Shown: positions 2,401-30,218 of the stretch, piece by piece
Numbering within the stretch: the stretch's first letter is position 1
Layout: every line of letters starts with the position of its first letter
DNA from: Eledone cirrhosa
Taxonomy: Eukaryota
Length of the DNA stretch: 64,000 nucleotides
Direction of reading: 5' to 3'
NCBI GenBank assembly: GCA_964016885.1
Contig: OZ024743.1
Location: forward strand, 115,630,001-115,694,000
The notes under the pieces: model-generated
What the model was told of the DNA's origin: nothing
Databases searched by the model: none
What the model saw: the letters and a program-made list of their open reading frames with translations, nothing else
Position numbers and translations under genes: made by a program

Positions 2401-2699
2401 TCACGCTGTAGACGAACATAAATAAACAAACAAACAAATAGGTAAAAAAAAAAGCCAAAAAAGAATAAGCATAAGTTTCATTGTAATGTAATGTTTGAAT
2501 GTCTGACTTAGTTTTTTTTTCTCCTTCTCTGTCTGTCTGTTTGTTTTTCTTCTCATTTTTCTTTTCTTTACGTTTTTCGTTTTTGCTGTGCTGCTTTGAT
2601 TTTGATTTTTGGTTTTTTGATTTTTTGACCGGGTCATCAAATCAGTCTATTTATATATTTTGATGCCTTCCTCTTTTAATGGGGACACTACGATGCATG

Positions 2700-2970
2700 T
2701 CTTAGCAGGAGGTAGTGGGAGAGAATAGTGGCGGTAGTGATAATGAGGCAGTGGTGGTGGTGGTGGTGGTGCCGTGCTAGTAGTACTTAGCAGGAGGTAG
2801 TGGGAGAGAATAGCGACGGTAGCGATAATGAGGTAGTGGTGGTGGTGATGTGATCGTAGTACTGTAGTGATGGTGTTGAAGTTGAAGTAGAAATAGAAGT
2901 TGAGGTAACTTGACTAGAGTTTTTAGCGTGGTAGTGGTGATGGTGGCGGTGGTGGTGTTGGTGGTGAAAT
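2700..2970. repeat. GGT/AGT-rich low-complexity repeat with a short tandem duplication
   Basis: CTTAGCAGGAGGTAGTGGGAGAGAATAG occurs twice, alongside (GGT)n runs. Confidence 0.7.
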
Positions 2971-3171
2971 TATTTTTCTGTCTGTCCACTTAGCCATTTA
3001 GCTATTTAGCTATTTAGCCATTTTGCCATTTTCCTCTTTTTCGACTATAACATTTCTGATCCAAAATTAAATATTAAAAATATTGGGATCCTATGCCGTA
3101 AAGTGATGCGTTATGGCTTGCTGAGCGTGAAAACTGTAATCTTATTGTTCATTTGCAATTTCAGGTCATTA

Positions 3172-3357
3172 TGGATTGGCAGTATCGGTAGAGGGTCAGA
3201 CACCATGCTTTCCAGCATAGTTACGTCCCTTTACGATCTGAGTTCAAATCCCGCCGAGGTTGACTTTGCCTTTCATCCTTACGAGGTCGATAAAATAAAG
3301 TACCAGTAATGCACTGGGATAATTGATGGCCTTGTGCCAAAAGTAGAAACAATTATT
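3172..3357 (+). mobile_element. SINE family S1
   Basis: Near-identical to 1634-1820. Confidence 0.9.
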
Positions 3358-3359
3358 AA

Positions 3360-4500
3360 AACAAATTCTATAATTACTTTCTTTACTCTATTTAATTCGC
3401 TATTATTATTTTTTCCACAATAAATAATATGCCGTCTCTATACAAACCACCGATAATCTCCGGCAGTTTTCTATTTATCATGTTAAGGATGAAAATTCAC
3501 ACAAGATCGGTAACTTGCGCCGAATCAGACGAGCCCATAGTAATGTCAAAGTTTTTCAGCCTATCGGATCTAGTCCAAAGATCATTATTAAATTCTATCA
3601 ATTTCGCCTTGCAGTTAAAATAATATTTATCTCATCACTAGATAGATCCGTGTGCTTATATGCATATGAAGCGCCTTATTTAGTAGGTTAGAAGTTATTG
3701 AGGAATAATAACTCGCTATGTCCATTTGAATGAACTTATGATTTTTTTTATTTTCGATATTATTGAACCAATCTATGACTTCGTTAGTGCCCGTACACAG
3801 GTTTAGCTTTGACCTAAATTTAAGCGTTGGTAAAATCCTATCTATAATGTTTTTACTAATTATTCCGAGATCTGATTTGAAGGTGCAATAAGTCTAACAG
3901 GTAAGTCTTCTTGAAAATTAATTTTATTTTCTTTAAAATTTATCCGTGGTTGCCTTGGTATGAGGGGTTCCGTTTTCCGCTCTATTCCGAGATTAGTGAT
4001 AATTTCAAATGCATCATTATTAATATCCACAAATCTTCGCTTGGGGCCTTTTTATAATTTTTTCTCAATTCTTTTAAAATTAAGTCGTTATATTTTGTTC
4101 TTTCAATCCCATATATATTGTTTGTTTTGTCTGATTTCACTAATATTTTATTTACTTTCTGTATGTCATTAATTTTTCCCTTTAGACCTCTAACGTATTC
4201 TTGGCTATATGTTTTTTTAATTAAATTTTTTATTCCTTAATATATTTATAATTTCGTTTTCAAAATTCGCCAAGAGTTTGTTGTAAGGAGGATTTTTCCT
4301 AGATTTAAAAATATGCTCGAAATTCTGGTTGGTGTTTTTCTTATCCGCTTTCTCTTTATTTTCAAAGTGAAAAGCACGCCACCGCAGTCTTCTTATAAAG
4401 GAGTTGGTTTGTGCAATAAAGTTTTTTATATATTCTCCGTTAGATGGTAAAGGTATATCTTTGAGAGATGAAGAAATCCTGAAGAACTCCATCACTTATT
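3360..4500 (-). pseudogene. Penelope-like element reverse transcriptase, degenerate (N-terminus to catalytic motif)
   Basis: ORF 4217-4495 SLKDIPLP..FIRRLRWRAFHF resembles PLE N-termini. Minus-strand translation near 3430-3555 gives FDITMGSSDSAQVTDLV*IFIL..GGLYRDG, matching PLE RT motifs MGS and YRDD, with stops and frameshifts. Confidence 0.8.
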
Positions 4501-7448: not shown

Positions 7449-10400
7449 TCCTTGAATCTCAGTCATTGATGTTGGTTAACTGGAAAGTCCGTTGGATTGA
7501 ATATCAAGCCACTACCTGCAGCCTCAGATATTCAGGACGTATCGGAGGGTTCTTGCCGTTCCAAGCAAGCATGCCTTTTGAAGCGTTCCAAAAAGCGTGA
7601 AGGGGCCGATTTTCTTTAACCATCCCTGGAAACCTTTGGAGATAGTCCCCAGTGCGCCTATGACAATCGGGATCACTTTGACTTCATGGCAGTTCCAAAT
7701 CCTTTTCACCTCCCACTTTAGGTCCTGGTATCGGTTAATTTTCTCCCTCTCCTTCTCTTGCACTCTCGTGTCGAACGGGCAGGCCACATCCACAATCAGG
7801 CACGATCTTTTTTCTTTGTCCACAACCACCAGGTCAGGTCTATTGTGTTCCAGTTTTTTGTCCGTCTGTATCCTAAAATCCCACAGCACCTTCACCTGAC
7901 TGTTCTCCATCACCGCCTCTGGCCTATGCTCATACCATTTCTCAGAATGTGGTAGATTGTTTACTTTGCACAGGTGCCAGTGGATCACCCTGCCCATCAC
8001 ATCGTGTCTCCAGCCCTTATAGTGGGTCTGGGCTAGGTGTTTACACTCGGACACAATGTGAGCCACAGTCTCCTCTCTCTCTCCACAGATCCTGCACAGT
8101 GGGCTAGCCTCCTCCTTGTAGATATGGTGCTTCAACCACTTCGTTTTGAGGGCCTGCTCCTGCGCAGCCATTAGCATTCCTTCTGTAGCCTTTTTGAGGT
8201 CTCCTCTTCTCAACCAGTTCCATGTCTGTGGATCTCTAAATTCAGTTTTCTCAAAGAAGGTACTATGAAGGGATTTTCCCTTAAGGCTGCTCTTCCTCCT
8301 TGATGTTATTTCCTCCTTGGGTATCCCCTGGCCTACTGTCCCCTCCTTCAGTACAGCTCTGAGCATTGGCTCCTTACTATAGGTCACGTATTTGTATAGG
8401 TTGTTTTTCTCCATCTGAACACAGTCCTCTATGCTGATAAGACCTCTTCCACCCTCAGATCTCCTTAGGTAGAGTCTATCGACATCACTCCTCTTGTGGA
8501 ACATGTTGTAGATAGTCAATAGCTTCCTAGTCTTCCTATCCATTTCTTTTTGTTCAGCAACATTCCATCTCAGAATTCCCGCACTGTACCTAATAATAGA
8601 CACAGCTCGGGAATTTACTGCGCTTATGGCATTTCTGCTGTTCAGATGTGACTTCAATACGCTCCTTACTCTCCGAATGTATTCAGTTCTTAACAATTCC
8701 TTCATTTTTTTGTTCTTTATGCCATCAGCCTCCAGAACGCCCAAATACTTGTATCCTTCCTCAGAGTCAATTTCCTTTATCATCTCACCTGTTGGTATCT
8801 GGATCCCGTTACTTCTGCTCAACCTACCCCTCCTCATCACAATGACTCCACATTTACCAATACCAAACTGCATACATATATCACTGCTGAAAATACGGAC
8901 AGTGTCAACAAGCACATCCAACTCCTTCTCACTTTTCCCGAAGAGCTTAAGATCGTCCATGAAGAGGAGGTGATTAGTGGTAAGCTCTCCCCTTCCCAAC
9001 TTGTATCCTGCTCTCACTTTTCGCAGCATAATGGTCAAGGGCATCAGGGCAAGGACAAACAACAGAGGGGACAGGCTATCTCCCTGGAAGATACCTCTCT
9101 TGATCTTCACGCTTCCCAAGGATACTCCAGTTGATGTCAACTCTGTCTCCCAGGACCCCATACTCCTGCCCAGCAACTGTCTGATGTTATCTGCCACCCT
9201 GAAGATCTCCAGGCTTTTGGTGATCCAGGAATGAGGCACCATGTCAAATGCCTTTCTGTAGTCTATCCATCCCATGGCAAGATCAGTGTGTCTCCTCCTG
9301 CAATTCCCCATTACCATCTTATCAATAAGCAACTGGTCCTTTGTACCACGTGACTTCTTTCGGCATCCTTTCTGTTCGTCCGGCAACAAGTTGTTTGTGT
9401 GGAGGTGATGGTAGATTTCCTCAGACACAATGCTCGTCAACAGTTTCCACATTACGGGCAGACATGTGATAGGTCTATAGTTGGTAACATCATTACCCTT
9501 GATTCGGTCTTTCATTATCAGAACTGTGGTACCTTTTGTCAACCACTCTGGCACCTCACCCGACACCAAGCAGTCATTGAACATGGCCGTCAGCTTCGGG
9601 TGGAGGGATGTTAAATGTTTAATCCAATACCCCTGCACACCATCTGGGCCTGGTGATTTCCAGTTGGTTAGTTTTTTGGCTTGCCCCTTAAGAGTTTCAA
9701 CTGTGATACTCAAATCAGTCTGTTGCTGTGCCTGCTCACCGATCTCCCTCTGTACTGTCTCAATCCACCCTGCCTGGGCATTGTGTCTAACATCCTGCTC
9801 CCATATTCCTCTCCAGAATGTTTTAGCTTGTTCCGCCCCAGGGATCAAGTCGGTGCCTCTTTCTTTCCCCTCAAGCTGTCCAAACAGCATCTTCTGGTTG
9901 TTGTCGAACATGCGGTTCTGTTTATACTGACTGACTCTGTTCTCGTATCGCCTGATTTTGGCACTCTTTGCTACAATGCGTTGCTTCAATTCCTCTATGA
10001 TAATATTTAGCTTTTTACTCCTAGTTTTGTATTTTATTTCCAGTCTATTTTTAGTGCCTATGTTTTTTAGTGTCCCATTCAGTAGTGACTCAAGCTTTCC
10101 TATGTCATTTCTCATTTCCCCGATTTGCCCACTCAGTCGCTTCTTCCACCACGGCTCTGCTCTTTCTTGTCTGTTGTTTCCTCTCGCTTTTATACCAAGT
10201 AGTTTCCTCACCGTATTTGCTGTTGCTTTGAGGATATTGTTGCACTGGTGAAGACTCCTCGCCTCAAGGTATGGGATGACCTTGTTTACCTTAGCTGTTG
10301 TTTCTTTTAACTTTTTCCTGTCTACAAATCTTAGGTTCATAGGTCTCCCACTATCATTGTTCAACTCATCTACCACTAAATTTAGGATGTCAACCGAATC

Positions 10401-11637: not shown

Positions 11638-12044
11638 TTATTATTATTATTTTTATTATTATTATTATTATTCTTATTGGCGACCTACGTAGGAAATCGT
11701 ATCATCGTGAACTCCGCAAATATTTGTTATTTTCAGTTGTTTAAAATTTCCATATACGGAAAATTTTTGTTTGTTAACTGTTTATATGTGCACATACATT
11801 GCTTTCTGAAAAGGACACTCAAAAAGATTCGGGCCTAGAGCCCAAAATTTAAACTTTTATAATTATCAAACAAAAAATTTCTTTTAAAAAAGCATGGACG
11901 ACTCACAGTTACACCAAGCAGCTGAGAGCCTTCCTCACAAACTAACACCTCACAGCAACACCACCATTGTAAATATGACTACGTTTGCCAAGACTAAAAA
12001 TATAAGCAGTAGCAATAATTTAAATTCATTTCCCGCCATTACCA

Positions 12045-13621
12045 ATGACTGCAGGTCTTGAAGCCGCCACCCCAACCACGGCAACAACAGAAACAAAAGA
12101 AAAAAATAAATTATCTCATGACATGGAAATTCATTCACCCAGAATCGACTCTTCCACACCGAACACCACTGACGCTACCACCACCACAACTGAAACTAAA
12201 AACAACAATAACAAAAAAAATAACAATAACAACAGCAAAAACAAGAATGAGAATAACAACACCGTGTCGTTTGCCAAAGCAGCCAAACAATGCGAAACAA
12301 TCCAGCAGGAGTTAGATGAAGCCAAGAGAATGGTAAAGAAAGATGGGTACAGGGCCAGCCCCCCCACCCCCCTCCACACACACCTAATAAAATGGACCAT
12401 CGGCGCCTATGCACCGTGTCTTATCGGACGATTAACATAAAATCGCGCCGAGTGGAACGGGCATCCGAGTTCCAAATCCAAAAACTTTGGGACATGTGTG
12501 GGCAAAAAAACCCACATCAGACGAGGGCAGAAATATGGAACCGTGGGCGTGTTCTTTGGAACACAGGAGGCCAGAGAGCACTCCATGGCCCTATTAAGAA
12601 GCGACGACTTCACACCCGTCCCAAACTATTTTGGCCAGAGACTCGTAAAGATCAGGGTGACCACGTTCAACCGGCCATCGAAATTCCCTGGCTAATGGCT
12701 GGCATCCTCGCCGGTATCGAGGCCAGCACCAAAATAATAGAAATAGCAAAAGAAAAGTAGGAGAACTGGTCCGGATCTGGGATGTAGCTCCTGATCCAAG
12801 CGGACAAAAAAGCACTGACGGCAGCCACCTCACCGTAATCATCGAGGGTAGAAGGCCTAGGTGTGTCGTTTGTGGTGAATGAAACCACCTAAGGGCTCTC
12901 TGCACTCAGGCTAAAAAGTAGAGGCTACTCCTCTTAACCACCAGCAGCAGAAATGGCAGCAACAACTGTAGCAGCAAAAACAGAAGCAACTGTACCAGCA
13001 AACAACCCCAGCAACAGTTGCAAAACCAACACCACCACCACCCAAAGCGCCAGAACTAGCACCAGCGCCTACACCATCCACCACGCCACAGCTAAACTAA
13101 CGCCTGTGGAGGATTTTCCACTCCCCGACCTATCGTAAAAAAAGAAAAAGAAACCAAAACAAGAAAAAATCCTATTCCTTCCCCCTCCAAAAACAAATAA
13201 GGTATCAAACAAAAAAGTTAGGACAGCTATGCCACCATCCACACTAGCATCACCAACCCCATCACCACAAACACCAACACCATCACCATCATTAACCCCA
13301 ACACCACCATCACCAACACCACAGAAGTTACCAAAAAGCGAAACAGAATAAAACCCACAACAAACGCAAACAAAACAAAACAACCAAAACGATACACACT
13401 TCACACCATTAAATTTGAACAACAACCAATTACTACACTACATCCAACACATCACCAGCATCACAGAAAAAGACTACACAACACCCCAAAAGTTCACACC
13501 ACAACCACACTCACATCACACAGGACTCTCCAGGAGGATTTATAAGGATATCCTTCCGGAGGAGGTCACAAGCAGTGAAAAGGATGCAGAAAGCATCCTT
13601 CCTGTACGAGAAGTAAGGTAA
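12045..13621 (+). pseudogene. Tx1-like ORF1 (gag-like), frameshifted
   Basis: Pieces SFAKAAK..ELDEAKRMV and CTVSYRTINIKSRRVER, a decayed CCHC near 12863-12903, and the end ..ILPVREVR*. Homologous to 24673-26717. Confidence 0.8.
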
Positions 13622-13655
13622 GTGGTCTTTCCCATCTTTTCAACTCCATTTCAAC

Positions 13656-16600
13656 ATGACTTCACTCAGAATAGGCAGCATAAATGCGCCTGGCTTGGGG
13701 TCGTCATGGATGCAGGGCCACTTGCTCAACGACCTCAGGTGACTAAACATAGATGTAGTGGCCATCAGCGAGACCAGAATCTCCGAAGCACGGGCCTTCG
13801 CACCTATCTTCGGTGGCTACGATGTGTAAGCATCTCCCAGCCGTCCTGGATCGGGGGGAAGAGTTGCTGTGCTTTTTCGGAGAGGTTTGGATCTCGCCAT
13901 ACGGGCCATCTTCCTGGACTCAGAAAGGAATTTGGTGGTGCTGGACGTGACAAGCGGAGACGGGCAAGCTTTCAGGTTAGTGGCCGTCTATTTCCCGATA
14001 GGAGCAGGGCGGCCTGATTTCTTCCTGCGTCTGGAAACCTTTCTTGGAACATCTCGTTCTTTACTGTTAGTGGGCGACTGGCACGGGATCATAGATGCAC
14101 GCTGGGACTGTGTGGGATTAGTGGATAGGAGAGGAGGGTGTAAAAGCCTCGCAAACCTGCTCAGACGTTTTCAATTGTCTGACAGGTACCGTCTGGATTT
14201 CCCAAATGTGCCAATGTTGTCATGGACAAACCGCATCGGGTGATCCAGATCATATTTAGATAAAGTATTTTGTATGGAAATAGATAGATCTAGCATAGGC
14301 TGTCCACAGTTCAAGATAGTAAGCTACACGGACCACAAATTCGTGATATGTGTGCTTGACTTAGACAGGCTTCATAGACGAGGACCCGGCTACAGGAAGC
14401 TAAACGCGTCCCTATCAGCGCGCAAGGCCTACAGCGACCGGATTAGCGAACTAGTTAAGCGGGCGTTGATATGCCATCGTCATCAAAAAATAAAGCAGAG
14501 GGAGAACTATTTAGAAAATTAGACGGGGCGCTTAGCAAATGCATTGGGGCCGACGTACTTGCGGCGAAATTTGCCCTTGACCAATTCTTCAATGCAAAGC
14601 ACGAAGGCTGCGTTGTCAGAGCTAGGGTGCGTTCTTTCAGACACCAGGGTACGAAAGCCGTTCAATGGGCCCGATGGTGGAGCCGTGTCGTGGTATCAAA
14701 GCCACGGTCTGGTCTTTGGTGGACCATGACGGGCGCTTGCTACTCGATCCCGGGAATATGTGTGAAACTTTTCAGCGACACTTCGCTCAGCTGTTCTGGG
14801 GCAGCGGCGGATCGGATCGAGGGATGGACTCTAGTGTCTACCTCGAAGGACTGCCGCGGCTCTCGGCCGCTGAGGCGTAGCGTTGCGAAAAGCCGATAAC
14901 AGCAGCTGAAATACGGGAGGAAATGACTGGCTGCACAAGGAGTGAATTGCCTGGTTTTGATGGTCTGCCCTATGAACTTTACGTACAGATTCCAGACTTG
15001 TTCGGAGGCCTCTTGGCGGACGTCTACTGCAACTGGTAAAAGAAACGGGAGAATTCCGAGCTCTGTGAGCCGAAGAGCAGTGGCGCTGCTGAGAAAGGAT
15101 CCGAACAAGGGGGATAACATAGATGATTTCAGGCCCATAACTCTGCTAAAGTTCAAGATTTTGGAAAGGGGCTAGCAAAGAGGTTGGCGCTTGTCGTTGA
15201 TGGTCTGGTGGGCCAGGCGCAGACGTGCGCCATTCCCGGCATATCCATCCAAGACAACCCCCACATCATGCGATACATCGTGGTGTGGGTAGCTAGGGAA
15301 CCTGGCACGGGTCGGTCCTTGATCAATTTAGATTAGTCGAAAGCTTTCGATAGGTTCGACCATCGTTACCTAAAGGCAGTCCTTAGGGCGGCTGGATTTG
15401 GGCCCGTCTTCAGAAGCTGGATCGCTGCCATGCACAGCGACATCTGCTCTGTGGTGAGAGTGAACGGTCACGTTTCGGAACCGTTCAACATCATGCGCTC
15501 GGGCCGCCAAGGATATACCCTCTCGTCCCTCTTGTACATATTGACTCTCGAGCCATTACTGCACAAAGAGGGAACGTTGAGGTGGATCCTGCGCGAAGTA
15601 GGATGCGGAAGATTCGTGTTAGCATATGCGGACGATGTCACCGTAATGGTGTCGAACGCCAAACACATCGAGGCGATCGGCTCTACACTTAGAGAATACG
15701 AAGCGTTGACAGGAGCAATGTTCAACCAGGAAAAGTCAGTGGGCCTGCAGCTCGACACCTGGAGACGCAGGTCCATGCCGTCCAACAGCGTCGTCTGGCG
15801 CTGGAAGGACGGACCGGTTAAATTGTTAGGGGTCTGGTTCGGTCCGGACCTCCAGACGGACAAAAACATGGACGAGGTAACGAACAGGGTGGCTTCTCTC
15901 ACCCAGAAATGGGCGGAGAGGAAGCTATGCCTGAAATGTCGAGCGGAGGTGGCTAACGTGTACATCGCGCCCGTTATCTACTACCGCCTGACCGTCGTAT
16001 CTTGTCTTAAGCCTCGCCTGACTACGCTGGAGCGTTTGCTGTTTCGCTTTTTGTGGAATGGACGCGCTACATGGTCAGGCTGTCAACACCCACTACGTGG
16101 AGGGCTGGGCTTGCTGTGGCTGAAGATGCGCAGACACGCGCTCAGGCTACGACATCTCCACCTCTTCCTTGACGATGATTAGGTGTGGTGACCGTTTGCT
16201 AGACGCGTCTTTCCCCAGCTCGTCTCCTTGATGGAGCTGCAGTCCTGGGTCAAGCGAAGACCGAGAGGGAGCGCTTGGAGACTGGAATGTCTTCAGGCGC
16301 TCACAGCCTTCGACCAATCGGGCAATGTGATCGGTGGAAACTGCACCTTGACGTCCTATACAGGATTATTTGAGGGGAAGAGCGACGACGTACTTGTGGA
16401 AATTCTAGGCGTCGACGAAAATCAACTAGCCAATCTCTTCGGAAGAACTTTCGGGCCGGGGCCTATGGACAACTTCCAGAAATCCCTGGCCTGGCAGTGC
16501 TATCGAGGAGTTTTGCCAGTTCGGTATAAACTCTACAGGTATGGAGGTACGGTCAGCCGGGCATGTCTGAGATGCGCGCAGGGCGACGAAACCGTCCTGC

Positions 16601-16972: not shown

Positions 16973-18034
16973 ATTAAAGGTGGAAAACTGGGAGAGGGCA
17001 CTTTCCCTGGTGGTCAGGGTCACTGTGGCTTTTTAATGGGCTTTCTCCACGAATGTCCCTCGGAAGATTCCCCCCCCCCCCCTATTGGGGAATGTTTTCA
17101 TTGTTCTATTATTACATCCTCTGTTTTTTTTGATTTTTTTACACGCAGAAATGCCCTTTTGTACCGTCCTGTATTGCCCTGTACTGTCCTTAATGTCTAC
17201 TTTATGTAAACACTTGTGGTTAATAAAGAAAGTATTATTAGTGTTATTATTATTATTATTGTTATTGTTTTGTTGTCGTTATGTGTATTTGTTTTATTGT
17301 GTGTGTACGTGACGTGTAGCGTTAAATCTCTATGTATACACAGGTTATATGCTGGACTATCTGAAGATCATAAAAAAATATATCCCTTGATGTTACATAT
17401 TAAATTTATGGTATACTCGTCACGACATTTATTAATGTGTTTTTTTCATTTCGGGCGTAAGATGTTATTCTGTTGGGATATAAATAGAGGTATAATTTTA
17501 ATACAATTTGAATCTAGTGCAGGTTTTATATTGGCTATTAACTCTCTCAAGTGTTCTTGTTCTTTCATATTTGTTCTTTGGTTCATTAGTGACAGATATT
17601 ACGTAGATGATGAATGTACATATGGAACCCTAACTTCTGATTAATTCATAGGGTCGCTATAATGATATGCAGCGAGTCATGAACATTTTAATCATGGCAG
17701 AGCCATCTTTTCTCCTTCTCCAGATTTATTCAGTAAAGGAGAGAGAAAGAGATAGATATATAGAGAGATGAGAGAGAGTGAGAGAGTAATAAGAAGTAAG
17801 CGAACAAAAAAAAGCATCCTTACTAGCCTTTTACCATTCATCGACCTTAAAACGAGGAAATTATAACTGCACATGATTTGAACTCAGTGTTGACTGTTGG
17901 CACGAATACCAGCAGTCAACACTTTGTCGATTTGCAACCCCATGTTGATGCTATTGTCGAGAATATTGTGGACTTTTGAAGAAAAGAGAAGCAATCCACT
18001 TGCTACAGTAAAGTGAGAGTAACATTCTTAATAA

Positions 18035-19482: not shown

Positions 19483-22400
19483 AGTTGCATTTATCTTGCT
19501 TTATGTTCATACGAGTTATCACCAAGTCACAACCAGTGACCTCAAGAGACAAAAGGTCCGCCATGTTCAAGAAAGAACATACATACTCACACATGCATCT
19601 TTAGTGTTTAGACTTGTGATGTACTTATATTGACAGAATCTTCCTTAGTATATGGGCAGTTCCCATTAGTACTATCTTTTGTATTTCTCCTATACGCGGG
19701 TTTCCTGGGATTTGCGATAAGTAATCATTAGACCCCTTAGGTATCATACCCAGAGCGCCTACAACCACTGGTATTGTTTTAGTTCTCAATTTCCACATTT
19801 TTCCAATTTCTATCTCCAGGTCCTTATACTTGCTCAATTTGTCAAATGTTTTTATAGATACGTTCTTGTCTATTGGAACAGACATATCAATTAGCAGGCA
19901 TACCCTCTTTTTAAAGTCCTTCAATATTATATCAGGTCTATTTGCATCTATTTTTCGGTCTGTTTGGATGCTAAAGTTCCACAAGATTGAGATGTGATCT
20001 TTTTCAAGTATGGGAGGTGGTTGATGCTCCCACCAATTCTTTTGATGGGGCAGGTCAAAATGCTTACACATTATCCAATGTATGTATTGTGCAGCTCTGT
20101 CATGCCTGTTTAGGTATTCGGTTGGAGCTATAGGACTGCACATTGAAATTATATGGTCAATGGTCTCTGGTTGTGTTTTGCATACACGGCATAATGGGCT
20201 GCATCCATTTTTTATTATGTTGGCGTGGTAATTTTTTGTTCGCAGACACTGATCTTGTGCTCATATAATCAGTCCTTCAGTCTCCGATTTCCATCCAGAG
20301 GATGCCAACCACTGATGGGTTAAGGTTTTGTCAACATCAGGATTGTTAGCTCGCTCTGGGTATTTTCCATACAGAGGCTTTTCTTGCCATTTCTTAGCCA
20401 GTTTCTGTGGCAGTTCTTTCTTTGCAGTTACTTTTACCTGCTTTGCTTTTTCTGTGTTTTCCATTTCAGCAGTAAATGGGACTTCTGAAATTTGTCGTCC
20501 ATTACTGTATCTTTGTGCATCTTTTTCTAATGGAATATGATCTTTTGAAGCTTTCGTGTTTCAAAACGAGTTTGATCATCCAATCATGTGATTCCCTTAG
20601 ATATGTAGATAATCCAATTGTTGCAGTTTTCAACGCAATGTCTAACTGGATTAACCCACGTCCTCCTTCTTTCCTAGGGAGATATATTCTATCTATATCT
20701 GCCTTAGGGTGATGCATTCTGTTCATGGTTAAGAGTTTTCGAATTTTTGTATCGAGCCTACGGATCTCTGTGCTTGACCAGTTGATGACATTGTAACTGT
20801 AGGTTACTACTAGTATGGCAAGCGTGTTTATGGCATCCATCCTATTCCTTGCATTCAATTCCGTTCTTAAGATTGCTCTTACTCTGCGGTAACACTCCTT
20901 CCTTATCCTTTCCCTCATTGTCGAGTGCTTGATTCCGTCTCCTTCACAAACACCTAGATATTTGTAAGTTTTTTCTTGATCAAGTTCTCTTATCACGTTC
21001 CCCCGATCAAGATTAATGTCTGAACTCTTCAGCAGCTTTGTGAACGTTTCTCTGGCGCATTTATCTAGTCCAAACTCCATTTTAATGTCATCACTGAACT
21101 GCTCCACAGTGGATAATAGCCCTTGCAATTGTTCATCATTTTTTGCAAATAGTTTCAGGTCATCCATATAGAACAAGTGATTAATGGTTTTGCCATAGAC
21201 TTTATATCCGTGTTTTGTTTCATTGAGCATTTTACTTAATGGTATAAGTGCGATGCAGAATAAAAGCGGTGATAAAGAGTCACCCTGAAAAATTCCACAA
21301 TTAATATTAACTTCTCCAGCTGCCAGTGATTGTGTTTCACTATTCAAAAGGAGTGTCGTTTTCCACTGTCTTCATACTGAATGACAAACACCTCCTGACA
21401 ACGGGGGATATTTTGAAAATCTCTAAACATTTTTCTATCGAACTGTGTGGCAAACTATCGAATGCTTTTTTATAATCTATCCAAGCAATCGATAGAATTT
21501 TGTGTCTATTATGACAATCTTCCAGTATCATTTTGTTAACCAGAAGCTGATCCTTACAGCCATATGAGCCTCGTTTACACCCTTTCTGCTCAATGGGAAA
21601 TAGGTCATTTGTTATCAGGTGGTCATATGTGTATTCAGTTAGGACTGATGTTAACATTTTATACATTGTTGCGAAGCAAGTTATCGGTCTGTAATTTTGG
21701 GGATTGTTTGTCTCATCATTCTTCGGAAGCAGGAATGTAATGCCGTTAACTAGCCATGATGGTATCTTTTCTGGCTCCTTAACTATTTCATTGTAAAGTT
21801 GGGCTAACAGCTCATGAGACTCTGAGAAGGCATTTATCCAAATGTTTTGTAATTTGTCTTTTCCTGGGGATTTCCATTTGCTGGTTTTTCTTAGAACCAA
21901 GCGCAACTGTTCAACTGTTATATTTTCCCATATTTGTTCCTCAAGGTGAGCTGTATCTTTCATTTGTCTGTCTATCCATGGGGCATGTATATTATGAACT
22001 TTGTCTTCGGCCCAGATCTTTTCCCAGAATTCTTGCACTTCCTCCTTGGGTGGTATTGATTTAGCAGTTATTGTTGACTTACCAATTTTTCTGTAGAAGT
22101 TTCTTTGATTGTTTTTGAACATATTATTGTCCTTATAGAATCTAGATCGTTTTTCAAAGCGCCTTATACGAGTACATTTGGCCGACACTTTTTGCTTGAT
22201 TATTTCTATCAGCATGTCTATGTCACTTGTTGATATTATACTGTACTTTTTTTTCAATTTTCTAAGTTTAGTTTGTTTAACATGTTCACCTACTTTATAG
22301 TTTGTTAAAATTTCTATGTCCCATCGGAGAAGGTTTATTTGGCGATTGATGTTCTCTTGCCAAGTAGATTTCTGCTGGGAATTCCTTTGTTTTTTTTATC

Positions 22401-24405: not shown

Positions 24406-24458
<53 letters not shown>

Positions 24459-24672
24459 GAATGCTATGGTTGACGGAGGCTCGGCTCTGTAAGGAATTGT
24501 AAATTTTGAACGCTATAACAATTGTAAATTGTTTGAAACTTTAACGAACTTGTAGACAAAAACACCCTCCTCCTCGTGAGAGGGGTCTTTCTGCCCGTTA
24601 TTTGGCCCTTCGGGGTTAAGTAACTGCTTATTGGGGTTTTGTGCCAATATTTATTTTAAACAAAAAAACAAC

Positions 24673-26717
24673 ATGGCTACGAAAAAGAATTTTCATAGGT
24701 CACTCCCACTCATTCCGTTTTCTTCTTCCTCAATCATCACTACAGCAGAGAGAAGATTGTCTCTCCCCCTCCCTTCTTTAAATGTGTCTCTCTCCCTCCC
24801 TTCTCTTTCGCAAGCGACGACAGAAAAGAAAAGTCTCGTGCAAAGCGTGCAAGATTTCACCACAACGACGACGACAACGACGAAACAGGTGTGCGGGAAA
24901 TACGAAAACCCATTTCATTCGTCTGACGTCAGGAATAATAGCAGTAGCAGCCGTAATAACAACAGCAACAGTGACAATGAAAACAACAGTAGCAGCCGCA
25001 TAAACAACAACAGCATTAGCAGCAGCAACACCAACAACAACCACAGCAACAGCGGCGGAGACAGTAGTCGTAGTACCTGCAGCAACAACAAAAGTAACAG
25101 CAGCTCTGACGACAACAACAACAACAGCAGCAAAGAAAAACCAATCTCGTTTGCAGGTATCGCGAAGAACCTGGAAACAATCCTCATAACAAATGAGGAA
25201 TTAGAGGAAGCGAAGAAGATGGTGACAAAGACCGGACACCGAGCAATCTGCAAGGCAGCGGAAACATTTTTCGAAACCCAACAGCACTGTACGGTCACGT
25301 ACCGTACGGTAAGTACAAAATCCCGTAGGGTTGAAAGACCCACAGAGGCTCAAATACAAAAAGCCTTGGGTCTGTGTGGCAGCGGAAAACGCACATCACC
25401 CGAAGCAAAAAATATGCCACCGTAGACGTACTTTTTGTCACACCCCAGGAGGCAAAGGCTCAATCCGTAGTGATCCTAAGGAGCGAGGAAATGGTGTTGG
25501 TGCCCTCCTACTGCGGGCAAAAAATTGTGAGGGTCAAACTCACCCACGTCCCACCCGGGATGGCCCCTTCTTGGCTGGCCGCGTCTGTCCTCGTCGGAAT
25601 CGAGAACAAAACAACTGTACTGCAAGTACAGAAAAAAGTAAGGGAAGATTGGGTCGGCACCTCCATTGAGATGTTAATCCAAACCAACCAGGAGTGCATC
25701 GAAGCTATCCCGGATGTGATAGACTTCGATAACGGCACTCAGCTGCCCATAAGTGTTGAGGGCAAACGCCCGAAATGCTTTCGCTGTGGATCGAAGACTC
25801 ACCTCAGGGCCTTCTGCAACGAGAAGACCCTGAGAAAGGAGAAAACCCCCCTCCTTCCGAAACTGGCTCCACGGCTACCAGCAACAGGACAAGCGGCAAC
25901 CAGGAACGATAGGTCCGTGGCACCCATACCTACGCCACGGAAATCAGCAGCAGTGGAAATATTAACAACAACAGCAGCAATACCAAATGCAGTTGCAACA
26001 GAGACTCCAGTGCAAACATCACCAACAACAACAAGTGAAAGAGTGGAGCTGGTACCTCTCCCCGACCTCACAGAATCAGACATGGAGTGTGAGGTGGGAG
26101 AGGGATGGCAAAAGGTCGTAAGAAGGCACAAACGCAGAAGCAGCGCTTCGTCGCCTTTGAAAAGGGAGGAAAGAAATGATAAAATGGTAAAGTCTACTGC
26201 AAAGAGACTCACAGCAACAACACCACCAACACCATCACCACCCACACTAGCACCACCATCACCACCGGCGACAAACCCACCGCCAACAACACCTTCAACA
26301 CCACCACCACAAGCACCAACATCGCAAACACAACAACAAAACACACACACCCAGCAACAACGACAAGAAAATAGCAGAACCACACCCCACCCCCAGAAAA
26401 ACAAATGCACGGCAATAAATACACACAACAAGAAACTAATGACTTACATAATTGAACACACAGACATTTCATAACACGACTACATAATACCAGCACTAAA
26501 AATAGCACAGAAACAATACACAAACATTAAAACGAAATTCCCCAACGCAGTTGGTGATTTCAGGGACCTAGGAGGAACTAGCAATCGAAGAGTATATTCG
26601 GACATACTCATAGAAGAGCCGACGACCAGCCGAAGGGACGATTCAACGGTCCCTTCACCAGACGATCAAGTGAAAAAGGATGTAAAAACCATCCCTCCTC
26701 TACGAAAAGTACGGTAA
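24673..26717 (+). pseudogene. Tx1-like ORF1 (gag-like, CX2CX4HX4C zinc knuckle), one frameshift and one premature stop
   Basis: ORFs 24631-25425 and 25374-26474 (CFRCGSKTHLRAFC). The same frame continues past the TAA at 26474 to ..IPPLRKVR* at 26717. Confidence 0.85.
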
Positions 26718-26752
26718 GTGGTATTTCCCATCTTTTCCACTCTATTTTAAAC

Positions 26753-29700
26753 ATGACCTCACTCAGAATAGGCAGCATAAATGCGCGTGGCTTGGGGTCG
26801 TCATGGAAGCAGGGTCATCTTCTCAACGAACTCAGGTCACTAAACATAGATGTAGTGGCCATCAGCGAGACCAGAATCTCCGAAGCACGGGCCTTCGCAC
26901 CGATCTTCGGCGGCTACGATGTGTACGCATCTCCCAGCCGTCCTGGATCGGGGGGAGGAGTTGCTGTGCTTTTTCGGAGAGGTTTGGATCTCCCCATACG
27001 AGCCATCTTCCTGGACCCAGAGGATAAGCTGGTGGTGCTGGACGTGACCAGCGGAGACGGGCAAGCTTTCAGGCTAGTGGCCGACTATGCCCCGACAGGA
27101 GCAGGGCGGCCTGATTTCTTCCGGCGTCTGGAGAAATTTCTTGGAACGTCCCGCTCTTTAGTGTTAGTGGGCGACTGGAACGGGATCTTAGATGCACGCT
27201 GGGACTGTGTGAGATTAGCGGATAGGGGTGGAGGGTGCAAGAGCCTCACCAACCTGCTCAGGCGTTTTGAACTGTCTGACAGGTACCAGTTGATATTTCC
27301 CGAATGTGCCAATGTGGACTTGGTCAAATCGCATAGGGTCATCCAGATCATATCTAGATAGAGTATTTTGTAGGGAAATAGATAGGTCTAGCATAGGCTG
27401 TCCACAATTCAAGATAGTCAGCTACACGGACCACAAATTCGTGATCTGTGTGCTTGACTTAGATAGCCTTCATAGACGAGGACCCGGCTACTGGAAGCTA
27501 AACGCGTCCTTACCAGCGCGCAAGGCCTACAGAGACCGGATTAGCGAACTAGTTAAGCGGGTGTTGACGGGGGCCATCGTCAACAAAAGTGGTGGTTTGC
27601 TCTGAAAAGAGCGATTAGAATAGAATCCATTAGGTTTAGTAAGGCTTTAGCAATAGAGAAAAATAGAGCAGAGGGAGAACTAGATAGAAAATTAGACGAG
27701 GCGCTTAGCAAAGGCATTGCGACCGACGTGCTTGCGGCGAAATTGGCCCTTGACCAATTTTTCAATGCAGAGCATGAAGGCTGCGTTGTCAGAGCAAGGG
27801 TGCGTGCTCTCAGACACGAGGGGACGAAAGCCGTTCAATGGGCCCGAGTGGCGGAGGCGCGTCGTGTCATCAAAGCCACGATCCGGTCTTTGGTGGATCA
27901 CGACGGGCGCATGCTACTCGATCCCGGGAAAATGTGTGAAGCTTTTCAGCGACACTTCGCTCAGCTGTTCGGGGGCAGCGGTGGGCCGCGTCGAGTGATG
28001 GACTTTAGTGTCTACCATAACGGACTGCCGTGGCTCTCGCCCACTGAGGCGAAGTGTTGCGAAAAGCCGATAACAGCCGCTGAAGTAAGGGAGGCAATGA
28101 CTGGCTGCACAAGGGGTAAATGGCCAAGGTGCTAGCAAAGAGGTTGGCGCTTGTCGTTGGTGGTCTGGCGGGAGAGGCGCAGACATGCGCCTTTCCCGAC
28201 AGATCCATCCACGACAACCTCCACCTCATGCTATACATCGTAGAGAGGGTAGCTAGGGAACCTGGCACGGGTCGGTCCTTGATCAATTTAGATCAGTCGA
28301 AATCTTTCGATAGGGTCGACCATCGTTACCTAGCGGCAGTCCTGAGGGCGGCTGGCTTTGGGCCCGTCTTCAGAAGCTGGATCGCTGCCATGCACAGCGA
28401 CATCTGCTTTGTGGTGAGAGTGAACGGTCACCTGTCGGAACCGTTCAACATCATGCGCTCGGTCCGCCAAGGATGTCCCCTCTCGTCCCTCTTGTACGTA
28501 TTGACTCTCGAGCCATTACTGCACAAACTGTAGACGTTGAGGGGCGTCCCGCGCGAACTAGGATGCGGAAGATCCGTGTCAGCATATGCGGACGATGTCA
28601 CCATAGTGGTGTCGAACGCCAAACACATCGAGGCGATCGGCACTACACTAAGAGAATACGAAGCGGTGACAGGAGCAATGATCAACCAGGAAAAGTCAGT
28701 GGGACTGCAGCTCGGCACCTGGAGAGGCAGGTCCATGCCGTCCAACAGCGTCGTCGGACGCTGGATGGACGGCCCGGTTAAATTGCTAGAGGTCTGGTTC
28801 GGTCCGGACCTCCAGATGGACAAAAACTGGGACGAGGTGACGAGCAGGGTGGCTTCTCTCACCCAGAAATGGGCGGAGAGGAAGCTATCCCTGAAAGGTC
28901 GAGCGGAGGTGGCTAACGCATACATCGCGTCTGTCATCTGCTACCGCCTGCCGTCGTACCTTGTCCTAAGCCTCGCCTGACTGCGCTGGAGCGTTTGCTC
29001 TTTCGCTTTTTGTGGAAGGGACGCGCTCCGATGGTCAGGCGGTCCATCTGTTGTCAACACCCGCTACATGGAGGGCTGGGCGTGCCGTGGCTGATGATGC
29101 GCAGGCACGCGCTCAGGCTACGACATCTACACCTCTTCCTCGACGGTTATCAGGTGTGGTCGCCGTTTGCTAGACACGTATTTCCCTAGCTCGTTTCCTT
29201 GACGGAGCTGCAGTCCTGGGTCAAGCGAAGACCGAGAGGGAGCGCCTGGAGACTGAAATGTCTTCAGGCGCTCACAGCCCTCGATCAATCGGGCAATGTG
29301 ATCGGTGGAAACTCCACCTCGGCGTTCTATAGAGGATTAGTGGAGGGGAAGAGCGACGACGTACTTGGGCAAACTCTAGGCGTCGACGAAATTCAACTAG
29401 CTAATCTCTTCGGAAGAACTTTCGGGCCAGGGCCTATGGACAACTTCCAGAAATCTCTGGCCTGGCAGTGCTACCGAGGAGCCTTGCCAGTTCGGGATAA
29501 ACTCTACAGGCATGGAGGTGCCGTCAGCCGGGCATGTCCGAGATGCGCGCAGGGCGACGAAACCGTCCTGCACGCACTCTTCCAGTGTCCGAAAATTGCT
29601 GACTTGTGGGTTTGTGTCGAACACCTGCTGTCGCGTTTAGGACGGATCCGGCTATCATCTGTGTCCATCGTGAGGATTGCCCCGCCCTCCTCCTTTAGCC

Positions 29701-29939
29701 GGGAAGGGCAGGCAGTTTTTATCTGTCTGGTGGCCATGGCGAAAGAGATAGTGTGGTGGACACGTTTGAAAGTGTTGAAGACGAGCACTTACCTCTTCGG
29801 TGACTTTTTCAAATTTCATTTGAAAAGGAAAATCAGAGTAGAGAGGGAAGTGCTCTCTTCCCAGCATTTTGTTGAAAGATGGGTGAGAGAAGCAAGAATG
29901 GCCCGAGTGAATGGGCCTACTCTGAGTATATATCTGTAA
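26753..29939 (+). pseudogene. Tx1-like ORF2 (APE + RT + C-terminal Cys motif), frameshifted, with internal deletion
   Basis: MTSLRIGSINARGL..ISETR..VGDWN..SYLDRV..YTDHKF, then DQSKSFDRVDH, RQGCPLS, AYADD and CPRC..ETVLHALFQC. It lacks the segment matching about 14950-15165 of copy 1. Confidence 0.92.
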
Positions 29940-30218
29940 ATTAAAGGTGGAAAACTGGGAGAGGGCACTTGCCTTGGTGGTCAGGGTCATTGTGGCCTTT
30001 TACTGGGCTTTCTCCACAAATGTCCCTCCGAAGTCTCCCCCCTATTGGGGAAATTTTTATTGTTATTTTTTTGTTACATCCTCTGTTTTGTTTTCCACAC
30101 GCAGAAATGCCCATTTGTACCGTCCTGTATTGTCCTGCACTGTCCTTAATGTCTACTTTATGTAAACCCTTGTGGTTAATAAAGAAATCATTATTATTAT
30201 TATTATTGTTATTGTTAT

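Follow-up and report, generated by a model that had tools for sequence, protein, structure and literature searches.

A splice-site-like string over the ORF1 stop codon of a LINE in Eledone cirrhosa is very probably part of a stop-spacer-start junction

Are the two open reading frames (ORFs) of a long interspersed nuclear element (LINE) in Eledone cirrhosa joined by splicing, or is the short GT-to-AG segment at their junction simply the gap between two separately translated frames? This question is raised by a stretch of 64,000 nucleotides (nt) of contig OZ024743.1 (assembly GCA_964016885.1, positions 115,630,001 to 115,694,000, forward strand), here called the window, which contains two decayed copies of one LINE family. 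A first-pass annotation had suggested a putative 53-nt intron at the junction between ORF1 and ORF2 of copy 2. As we will show below, the junction is very probably the stop-spacer-start arrangement of a bicistronic L1/Tx1-like LINE, with ORF2 likely being made from its own AUG without splicing. The layout of the element is bicistronic, and by analogy with other LINEs we infer that ORF2 would be translated by reinitiation or a related internal start. The argument leans on the following features, in which A, A2, B and C designate lineages of the family (B being that of copy 1).

26713-26719, + strand: donor-like heptamer GGTAAGT with the ORF1 stop codon TAA at 26715-26717 (sequence, ORF1 translation, motif count).
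26718-26752, + strand: pyrimidine-rich inter-ORF spacer of 35 nt, 34 nt in copy 1 and in lineages B and C (sequence, lineage loci).
26753-26755, + strand: ORF2 start codon ATG, in the frame of the APE endonuclease domain, MTSLRIGSINARGL (sequence, Pfam, HMMER relatives).
26764-26766, + strand: CAG, the proposed acceptor (sequence, codon 5 of the diverged relatives).
13617-13669, + strand: junction of copy 1, with GGTAAGT at 13617-13623 (TAA at 13619-13621), the 34-nt spacer at 13622-13655, ATG at 13656-13658 and CAG at 13667-13669 (sequence, copy comparison).

In copy 2, the GT of the heptamer (26714-26715) and the CAG delimit a segment of 53 nt (26714-26766), the removal of which would join ..CCT CTA CGA AAA GTA CG|A ATA GGC AGC, read as ..PLRKV-R-IGSINARGL, in frame. 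The corresponding segment of copy 1 has 52 nt and differs by five substitutions and one indel, and as the spacer from TAA to ATG is one nucleotide longer in copy 2 (35 nt) than in copy 1 (34 nt), the unspliced phase of ORF1 and ORF2 is unlike in the two copies. In its coordinates, its in-frame join, the kind of differences between the copies and the spliced phase that is the same in both, the first-pass annotation was exact. It was silent on the fact that ORF1, ending with ..PLRKVR*, has its stop codon within GTAAGT, and that the in-frame ATG of ORF2 (26753; 13656 in copy 1), with which the APE endonuclease (Pfam PF03372) starts, lies within the putative intron. The G before this TAA occupies the third, synonymous position of an Arg codon, and the proposed acceptor CAG takes its C from the end of ORF2 codon 4 (CTC) and its AG from the beginning of codon 5 (AGA, Arg). 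Furthermore, the pyrimidine run is located at the 5' end of the segment and not between a branch point and the AG, and the 35-nt form of the spacer holds a second in-frame stop 10 codons past the TAA. GGTAAGT occurs 8 times in the window (7.7 expected) and MAGGTRAGT three times (2.0 expected), so that the donor motif itself is not enriched; the chance of GGTAAGT falling exactly over the TAA stop is about 0.2%, as we estimate from base composition.

If the segment were a real spliceosomal micro-intron of 52-53 nt, the ORF1 stop and the ORF2 ATG would both be removed, and an ORF1-ORF2 fusion protein with the junction peptide PLRKVRIGSINAR would be made. GT and AG in both window copies, the in-frame join and the indel falling within the segment are in line with such an intron, whereas the stop codon formed by the donor letters T-A-A and the position of the pyrimidine run argue against it. 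The first-pass annotation moreover stressed that the signature is kept with a different ORF1. It is indeed present in both copies, but these are not independent: from 26669 in copy 2 and 13574 in copy 1 onward the two are 88-90% identical, and an A-type and a B-type copy (L032 and L050) share 96.6% nucleotide identity over a block of 1,615 nt, the 5' end of which is 46 nt upstream of the ORF1 stop. The ORF1 proteins of A-type and B-type, in contrast, are only 35% identical (133/383) and the ORF1 DNA is not alignable. Since the shared block already sets in ahead of the stop, the junction was inherited with ORF2, and both window copies share it because it is part of this block; the alignments indicate that ORF1 was exchanged by recombination just upstream of the junction. 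An indel between two blocks shared by descent leaves the spliced phase equal, which therefore follows trivially. A further locus (L075) resembles another chimera, with an A-type ORF1 end and a B-like hairpin.

The family is large enough to ask what became of the segment during retrotransposition. Searching the whole 3.0-Gb genome for both flanks, exact and with 40-65 nt between them, gave 2,998 genomic copies that retain the segment, 621 of which have the 53-nt form; among the first 100 listed, the segment measures 52 nt in 79 and 53 nt in 19, and is shorter in two. The succession of TAA, spacer (35 or 34 nt) and ATG is seen in 30 of 30 young A-type and in 30 of 30 B-type loci. In the 30 near-identical A-type loci, ORF1 is open to the edge of the locus in 10, ORF2 in nine and both in three.

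A LINE copies its own RNA, and splicing of that RNA would therefore leave spliced genomic copies. According to passages of Larson et al. 2018 (PMC5860796), retrotransposed spliced RNAs of human L1, the SpIREs, correspond to 131 of 6,609 full-length L1s (~2%), and spliced L1 RNAs reach the genome because ORF1p and ORF2p prefer the RNA that encodes them. In the genome of E. cirrhosa, a genome-wide search for the exact spliced joint with up to two mismatches gave no match, so that intron-less retrocopies, by which an intron in a retroelement would be recognized, number 0 against 2,998 unspliced copies. The flanks with a gap of 0-30 nt gave, genome-wide, a single match, which is an internal 29-nt deletion and not a GT/AG joint. 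The exon end followed by a base other than G was found 75 times genome-wide, with 22 matches for a reversed-pattern control. These 75 sort into 61 point changes (39 G>A, 16 G>T, 6 G>C), seven small deletions and seven entering unrelated sequence, of which one is a 268-nt deletion with borders other than GT-AG, one a chance match within a diverged relative, one a weak match of 31 nt, and four have no match. No other use of the donor was found among the 75 by this search, which is blind to joins whose downstream exon starts with G. Loss of the +1 G, with 61 point changes compared to 2,998 intact copies (~2%), is sporadic. In four sequencing runs of unknown kind (X1, X4, X5, X6) the joint 26713->26767 is absent among the eight joints listed, and single contigs of 2,370 nt (X4), 1,412 nt (X5) and 1,015 nt (X6) bridge the unspliced junction; as the kind of these runs is unknown, the contigs are not used as evidence on expression, even if they speak in the same direction.

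Older relatives of the family tell which parts of the junction are kept as coding sequence. Eleven diverged loci, including the query L097, were found via the chance match of the exon-end search; they are 75-81% identical to L097 and ~72-76% to lineages A, B and C. Of these 11, eight retain TAA over the donor-like string, eight retain GT and 10 retain the ATG. Their ORF2 begins with ATG GCC TCA CTC AAG/AAA ATA GGC, and the protein with M-A-S-L-K-I-G-S. Codon 5 is AAG in seven, AAA in three and AGA in only one of the relatives, and the in-frame acceptor is absent in 10 of the 11 because AAG or AAA stands there instead of AGA. In the AAG relatives the AG is shifted by one base, so that a join would read ..AGA TAG with an immediate stop, and the AAA relatives have no AG. 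An intron would be expected to have its borders and phase conserved, but an in-frame AG|A acceptor exists in a single relative. Only lineages A, B and C combine GT...AG borders with an in-frame exon join, owing to the AGA at their ORF2 codon 5. AAG and AAA are synonymous and Lys to Arg is a conservative change, and therefore the variation of codon 5 tracks the coding of ORF2 and not an acceptor; like the ATG, codons 2-5 are conserved as coding sequence, which argues against an intron.

The same start is found in more distant proteins. A HMMER scan with residues 1-300 of ORF2 gave 4,233 proteins; of the best 150 among them, 69 cover the first 10 residues of the query, and 58 of these 69 start at most three residues from the hit's own residue 1. 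The other 11 have N-terminal extensions of 5-106 residues, and full-length hits of 1,140-1,270 amino acids are common. As the longest extension has 106 residues, there is no ORF1-ORF2 fusion among the 69 of the best 150 hits. The printed N-termini of the relatives read MASLK.., MASIR.., MVTLR.., MVSL.. and MSLKI... Since gene callers impose a start codon, these N-termini show only that an ATG is present at the homologous place, which it is consistently.

A further route to ORF2, programmed frameshifting or stop-codon readthrough from ORF1, has nothing but the closeness of the two ORFs in its favor. The first-pass annotation had argued against a fixed frameshift or readthrough from one indel, and this argument is strengthened by the abundance of both the 52-nt and the 53-nt form: the lineages with 34-nt and 35-nt spacers, which differ in phase, each comprise hundreds to thousands of copies. 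In the diverged relatives the spacer measures 33-36 nt by hand count, so all three phases occur, and the 35-nt form would in addition have to pass the second in-frame stop. With the phase between the ORFs being free, frameshift and readthrough are therefore excluded, and we give this route practically no chance. The first-pass annotation was also right that reinitiation tolerates the indel just as well as an intron does.

It had furthermore named young intact copies without GT or AG at these positions as the observation that would refute an intron. This observation is made in part, as two very young A-type copies carry AT in place of GT; they lie on one chromosome, 83 kb apart, on opposite strands and with unrelated flanks, and retain open frames of 700+1139 and 700+1091 codons (ORF1+ORF2), both frames of the former copy being fully open. 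The change of G to A at +1 is synonymous in ORF1 (CGG/AGG to CGA/AGA) and keeps the TAA. Both copies belong to the youngest sublineage and have no other exclusive substitution in common. Long open frames in copies that lack the GT argue against the micro-intron, and AT is likely, judged from these sequences, to have been inherited from a mobile parent without GT. A larger GT-less sublineage, a starred clade of five AT copies in a FastTree tree, was rejected as a sampling artefact, because its marker CCGTCC defines lineage C (1,290 copies), which was missing from the controls. The older AT copies L082, L083 and L086 share many states because they are members of lineage A2 (180 copies), in which GGT is present in 98 of the first 100 listed.

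It is also conceivable that the 5' splice-site string over the stop serves as a docking site for the U1 small nuclear ribonucleoprotein without productive splicing, and thereby could suppress premature polyadenylation or control nuclear export. AGGTAAGTGG and the next ~15 nt are indeed more conserved than the ORF1 codons just upstream, in lineages that are ~25% diverged. However, the conserved stretch comprises ~25 nt (AGGTAAGTGGYCTTTCCCAC), which is wider than the donor alone and reaches well past the 9 nt read by U1, and it is therefore not donor-specific. Moreover, the window holds the motif about as often as expected by chance, and the +1 G has been lost in ~2% of the copies, as expected from neutral decay. 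U1 docking would thus be an improbable explanation.

Several points weigh against our reading of the junction as a plain stop-spacer-start arrangement, and some of them are the best that the micro-intron has to offer. AAG|GTAAGT in lineages B and C (e.g., 13615-23) is a perfect match to the 9-nt donor consensus; GGTAAGT has persisted in lineages A, A2, B and C, as GT has in 8 of the 11 diverged relatives; and the donor is followed by a stretch rich in pyrimidines, with an in-frame join in the A, B and C lineages. Rare or regulated splicing would be compatible with this sequence evidence. The retrocopy argument assumes a preference of the LINE proteins for their own RNA, as it is known from mammalian L1 and may apply here by analogy; each diverged relative is a single decayed copy from an older lineage; and AT in the two young copies may, instead of being inherited, have been gained by each after insertion. 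In addition, reinitiation after an ORF of 697 codons would be unusual, and complementarity to 18S rRNA does not exceed that of shuffled sequences. Against the micro-intron stand the absence of spliced copies next to 2,998 unspliced ones, the acceptor that is missing in 10 of 11 relatives, the stop that lies within the proposed donor, and the ATG that lies within the segment. Taken together, we consider the intron of the first-pass annotation very improbable, and the separate stop and start of two ORFs by far the better account of the junction. Among the listed titles and abstracts of the literature on LINE introns and fusions we met no report of an intron between ORF1 and ORF2, by which we do not claim that none is in print.

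How could ORF2 then be translated from a bicistronic RNA? The AUG is near the upstream stop, is conserved and is free in phase, with a distance of 34-35 nt (33-36 nt in the relatives) and an ATG in 10 of 11 relatives and in 60 of 60 A and B loci, as expected for reinitiation. Termination-reinitiation has been proposed for mammalian L1, with a 63-nt spacer, and for SART1, according to passages of PMC5972666. Ribosomes finishing ORF1, or joining internally, may thus start anew at the nearby ORF2 AUG, and ORF2 would be made by termination-reinitiation or some other internal start at its own AUG, and not as a spliced ORF1-ORF2 fusion. This restart may be assisted by the conserved 5' half of the spacer and by a conserved hairpin upstream of the stop:

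26677-26694, + strand: hairpin H1 at the 3' end of ORF1, AGGAUG-loop-CAUCC in copy 2 and AGGGAUG/CAUCCCU in young copies (fold, covariation).

H1 (13580-13600 in copy 1; columns 17-37 of alignment A2) sits at the 5' edge of the recombined block, at a distance of 22-45 nt before the stop. Across the lineages it has eight pairs with 89.5% of cells paired, and three pairs are changed on both sides: one occurs as U-A (5), U.G (3) and C-G (3), and two others show exchanges of G-C with A-U and of G-C with C-G. Shuffle controls are only moderately exceeded, as 11 of 500 reach the paired share and 35 of 500 reach the changes on both sides, and the z-scores for folding of the junction lie between -0.9 and -2.6. 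For another hairpin, formed around the stop by GAAAAG/CUUUUC, there is no support, as only 55% of cells pair across the lineages. Complementarity to the host 18S rRNA in the manner of a termination upstream ribosome-binding site (TURBS) was not found above chance, the best Watson-Crick runs having 8-9 nt versus a shuffle mean of 8.7-9.0. A 16-nt run with G.U pairs is present in B and C only, not in A or in the diverged relatives, and was treated as chance. The host 18S gene itself (L128) spans ~2,870 nt versus 1,831 positions of the model, which corresponds to large expansions, and is present in at least 11 copies on four contigs.

A more elaborate interpretation would regard the junction block as a dedicated RNA device that controls the output of ORF2, made up of a hairpin with compensatory changes, a stop within a splice-site string and a pyrimidine-rich half-spacer. 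This block is kept across lineages that are ~25% diverged and moves with ORF2 upon the swap of ORF1. Its role could be that of a platform for reinitiation or of a docking site for U1; the least likely role would be that of a facultative micro-intron in the lineage with the Arg codon. We regard such a device as rather doubtful, and prefer the plain junction with its restart at the ORF2 AUG.

Junctions of this kind have precedents. Alisch and co-workers reportedly described in 2006 an unconventional termination/reinitiation in mammalian LINE-1 with an inter-ORF spacer of 63 nt, and Kojima and co-workers are said to have described in 2005 the stop-start coupling at UAAUG in silkworm SART1. As in mammalian LINE-1, for which we refer to parts of PMC5972666, two ORFs are encoded per RNA, separated by a short non-coding spacer, with the ORF2 Met right before the APE domain and without a fixed phase; however, the spacer has 34-35 nt here versus 63 nt, and the tail is (ATT)n instead of poly(A). 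Also unlike in mammalian LINE-1, ORF1 here comprises 697 codons and has long tails of low complexity besides a CCHC knuckle, and the translation mechanism is a putative one. In contrast to the human SpIREs, which according to passages of PMC5860796 use sites in the 5' untranslated region (UTR) or in ORF1 and not in the gap between ORF1 and ORF2, none of ~3,000 copies carries the joint here. SART1 is likewise a non-LTR element (one without long terminal repeats), and translation of its ORF2 is coupled to the termination of ORF1 and needs a nearby RNA structure, but its stop and start overlap and the structure is downstream, whereas here they are 34-35 nt apart and the candidate hairpin is upstream (passages of PMC5972666). 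The element is also similar to the Tx1 group of the L1 clade, in having APE, reverse transcriptase (RT) and a C-terminal zinc-binding domain, a CCHC knuckle in ORF1, a tail of microsatellite repeats, and copies that lie behind (ATT)n and in head-to-tail arrays. The label Tx1, of a group that has target-specific members, is taken here as an assumption from the first-pass annotation, and target specificity for (ATT)n is only suggested.

The rest of copy 2 fits this classification. Its parts are as follows.

24459-24672, + strand: 5' UTR of ~214 nt, directly after the (ATT)17 tract at 24408-24458 (ATT tracts, ATG context; layout of locus L032 alike).
24673-26717, + strand: ORF1, decayed, ending with PLRKVR-TAA (translation; ORF1 of L032 has 697 codons).
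26753-29939, + strand: ORF2 with APE endonuclease, reverse transcriptase and zf-RVT, interrupted by stops, frameshifts and deletions (Pfam, translation).
29940-30207, + strand: 3' UTR with AATAAA (30178) and (ATT)n tail (30190-30207) (ATT tracts, element layout).

ORF1 of copy 2 is damaged by a frameshift near 25330-25400 as well as by a stop at 26472-74 that is private to this copy, where a T replaces the C (CAA) that nearly all contigs of the compared sequencing runs have; copy 2 also lacks a 30-nt stretch after 26495 that contigs of X4 and X5 carry. Its translation contains a CCHC knuckle, CFRCGSKTHLRAFC, of the pattern CX2CX4HX4C, and ORF1 has no significant match in Pfam. The undamaged locus L032, one of five 9-kb loci, has an ORF1 of 697 codons, a spacer of 35 nt and an ORF2 of 1,139 codons, the product of which matches PF03372 Exo_endo_phos (5.2e-14), PF00078 RVT_1 (1.1e-27) and PF13966 zf-RVT (1e-07). 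With an N-terminal APE followed by RT, a C-terminal zinc-binding domain and a nucleic-acid-binding motif in ORF1, the element has what defines APE-type LINEs of the L1 superfamily. The closest named protein relatives are from molluscs (Argonauta hians, Octopus sinensis, Patella caerulea) and are unannotated; a word-index protein search gave four matches. Distant RT fragments that are 26-28% identical to the ORF2 of the copy 2 family are found in the window at 297-872, 8883-9707 and 21394-21921, all on the - strand. Contigs of X4 and X6, runs labelled as two other organisms, match this stretch at ~97-98%; thus the family or a very close one is not restricted to the source organism, or else the labels stand for close relatives.

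Copies terminate in (ATT)n and start right behind an (ATT)n tract, and such tracts are located in the window at 24408-24458, 30190-30207, 17246-17260 and 11640-11672. In L032 (1-1440) the 3' end of one copy is followed by (ATT)n and then by the 5' UTR of the next copy, and many of the 2,998 copies are spaced 5.9-6.1 kb on one strand, at times three in a row. This placement and spacing suggests head-to-tail arrays or insertion into (ATT)n. At locus L087+L088 a tandem pair of units of ~460-500 nt (2564-3066 and 3030-3528; 88.7% identical) is located upstream of the 5' end of a full-length copy, and a matching unit is also present upstream of the neighbouring copy; these units may be 5' UTR monomers.

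The translation of LINE ORF2 from bicistronic RNA is only partly understood, and a true intron between ORF1 and ORF2, if real, would be a new expression strategy of a retrotransposon. For this family the ~3,000 copies are a built-in record, according to which the RNA that is copied always retains the segment. The junction is therewith an ordinary inter-ORF junction of a LINE in a very successful family. A modest interest is left in the conserved junction block with its hairpin, in the clean swap of ORF1 upstream of it and in the head-to-tail arrays linked by (ATT)n.

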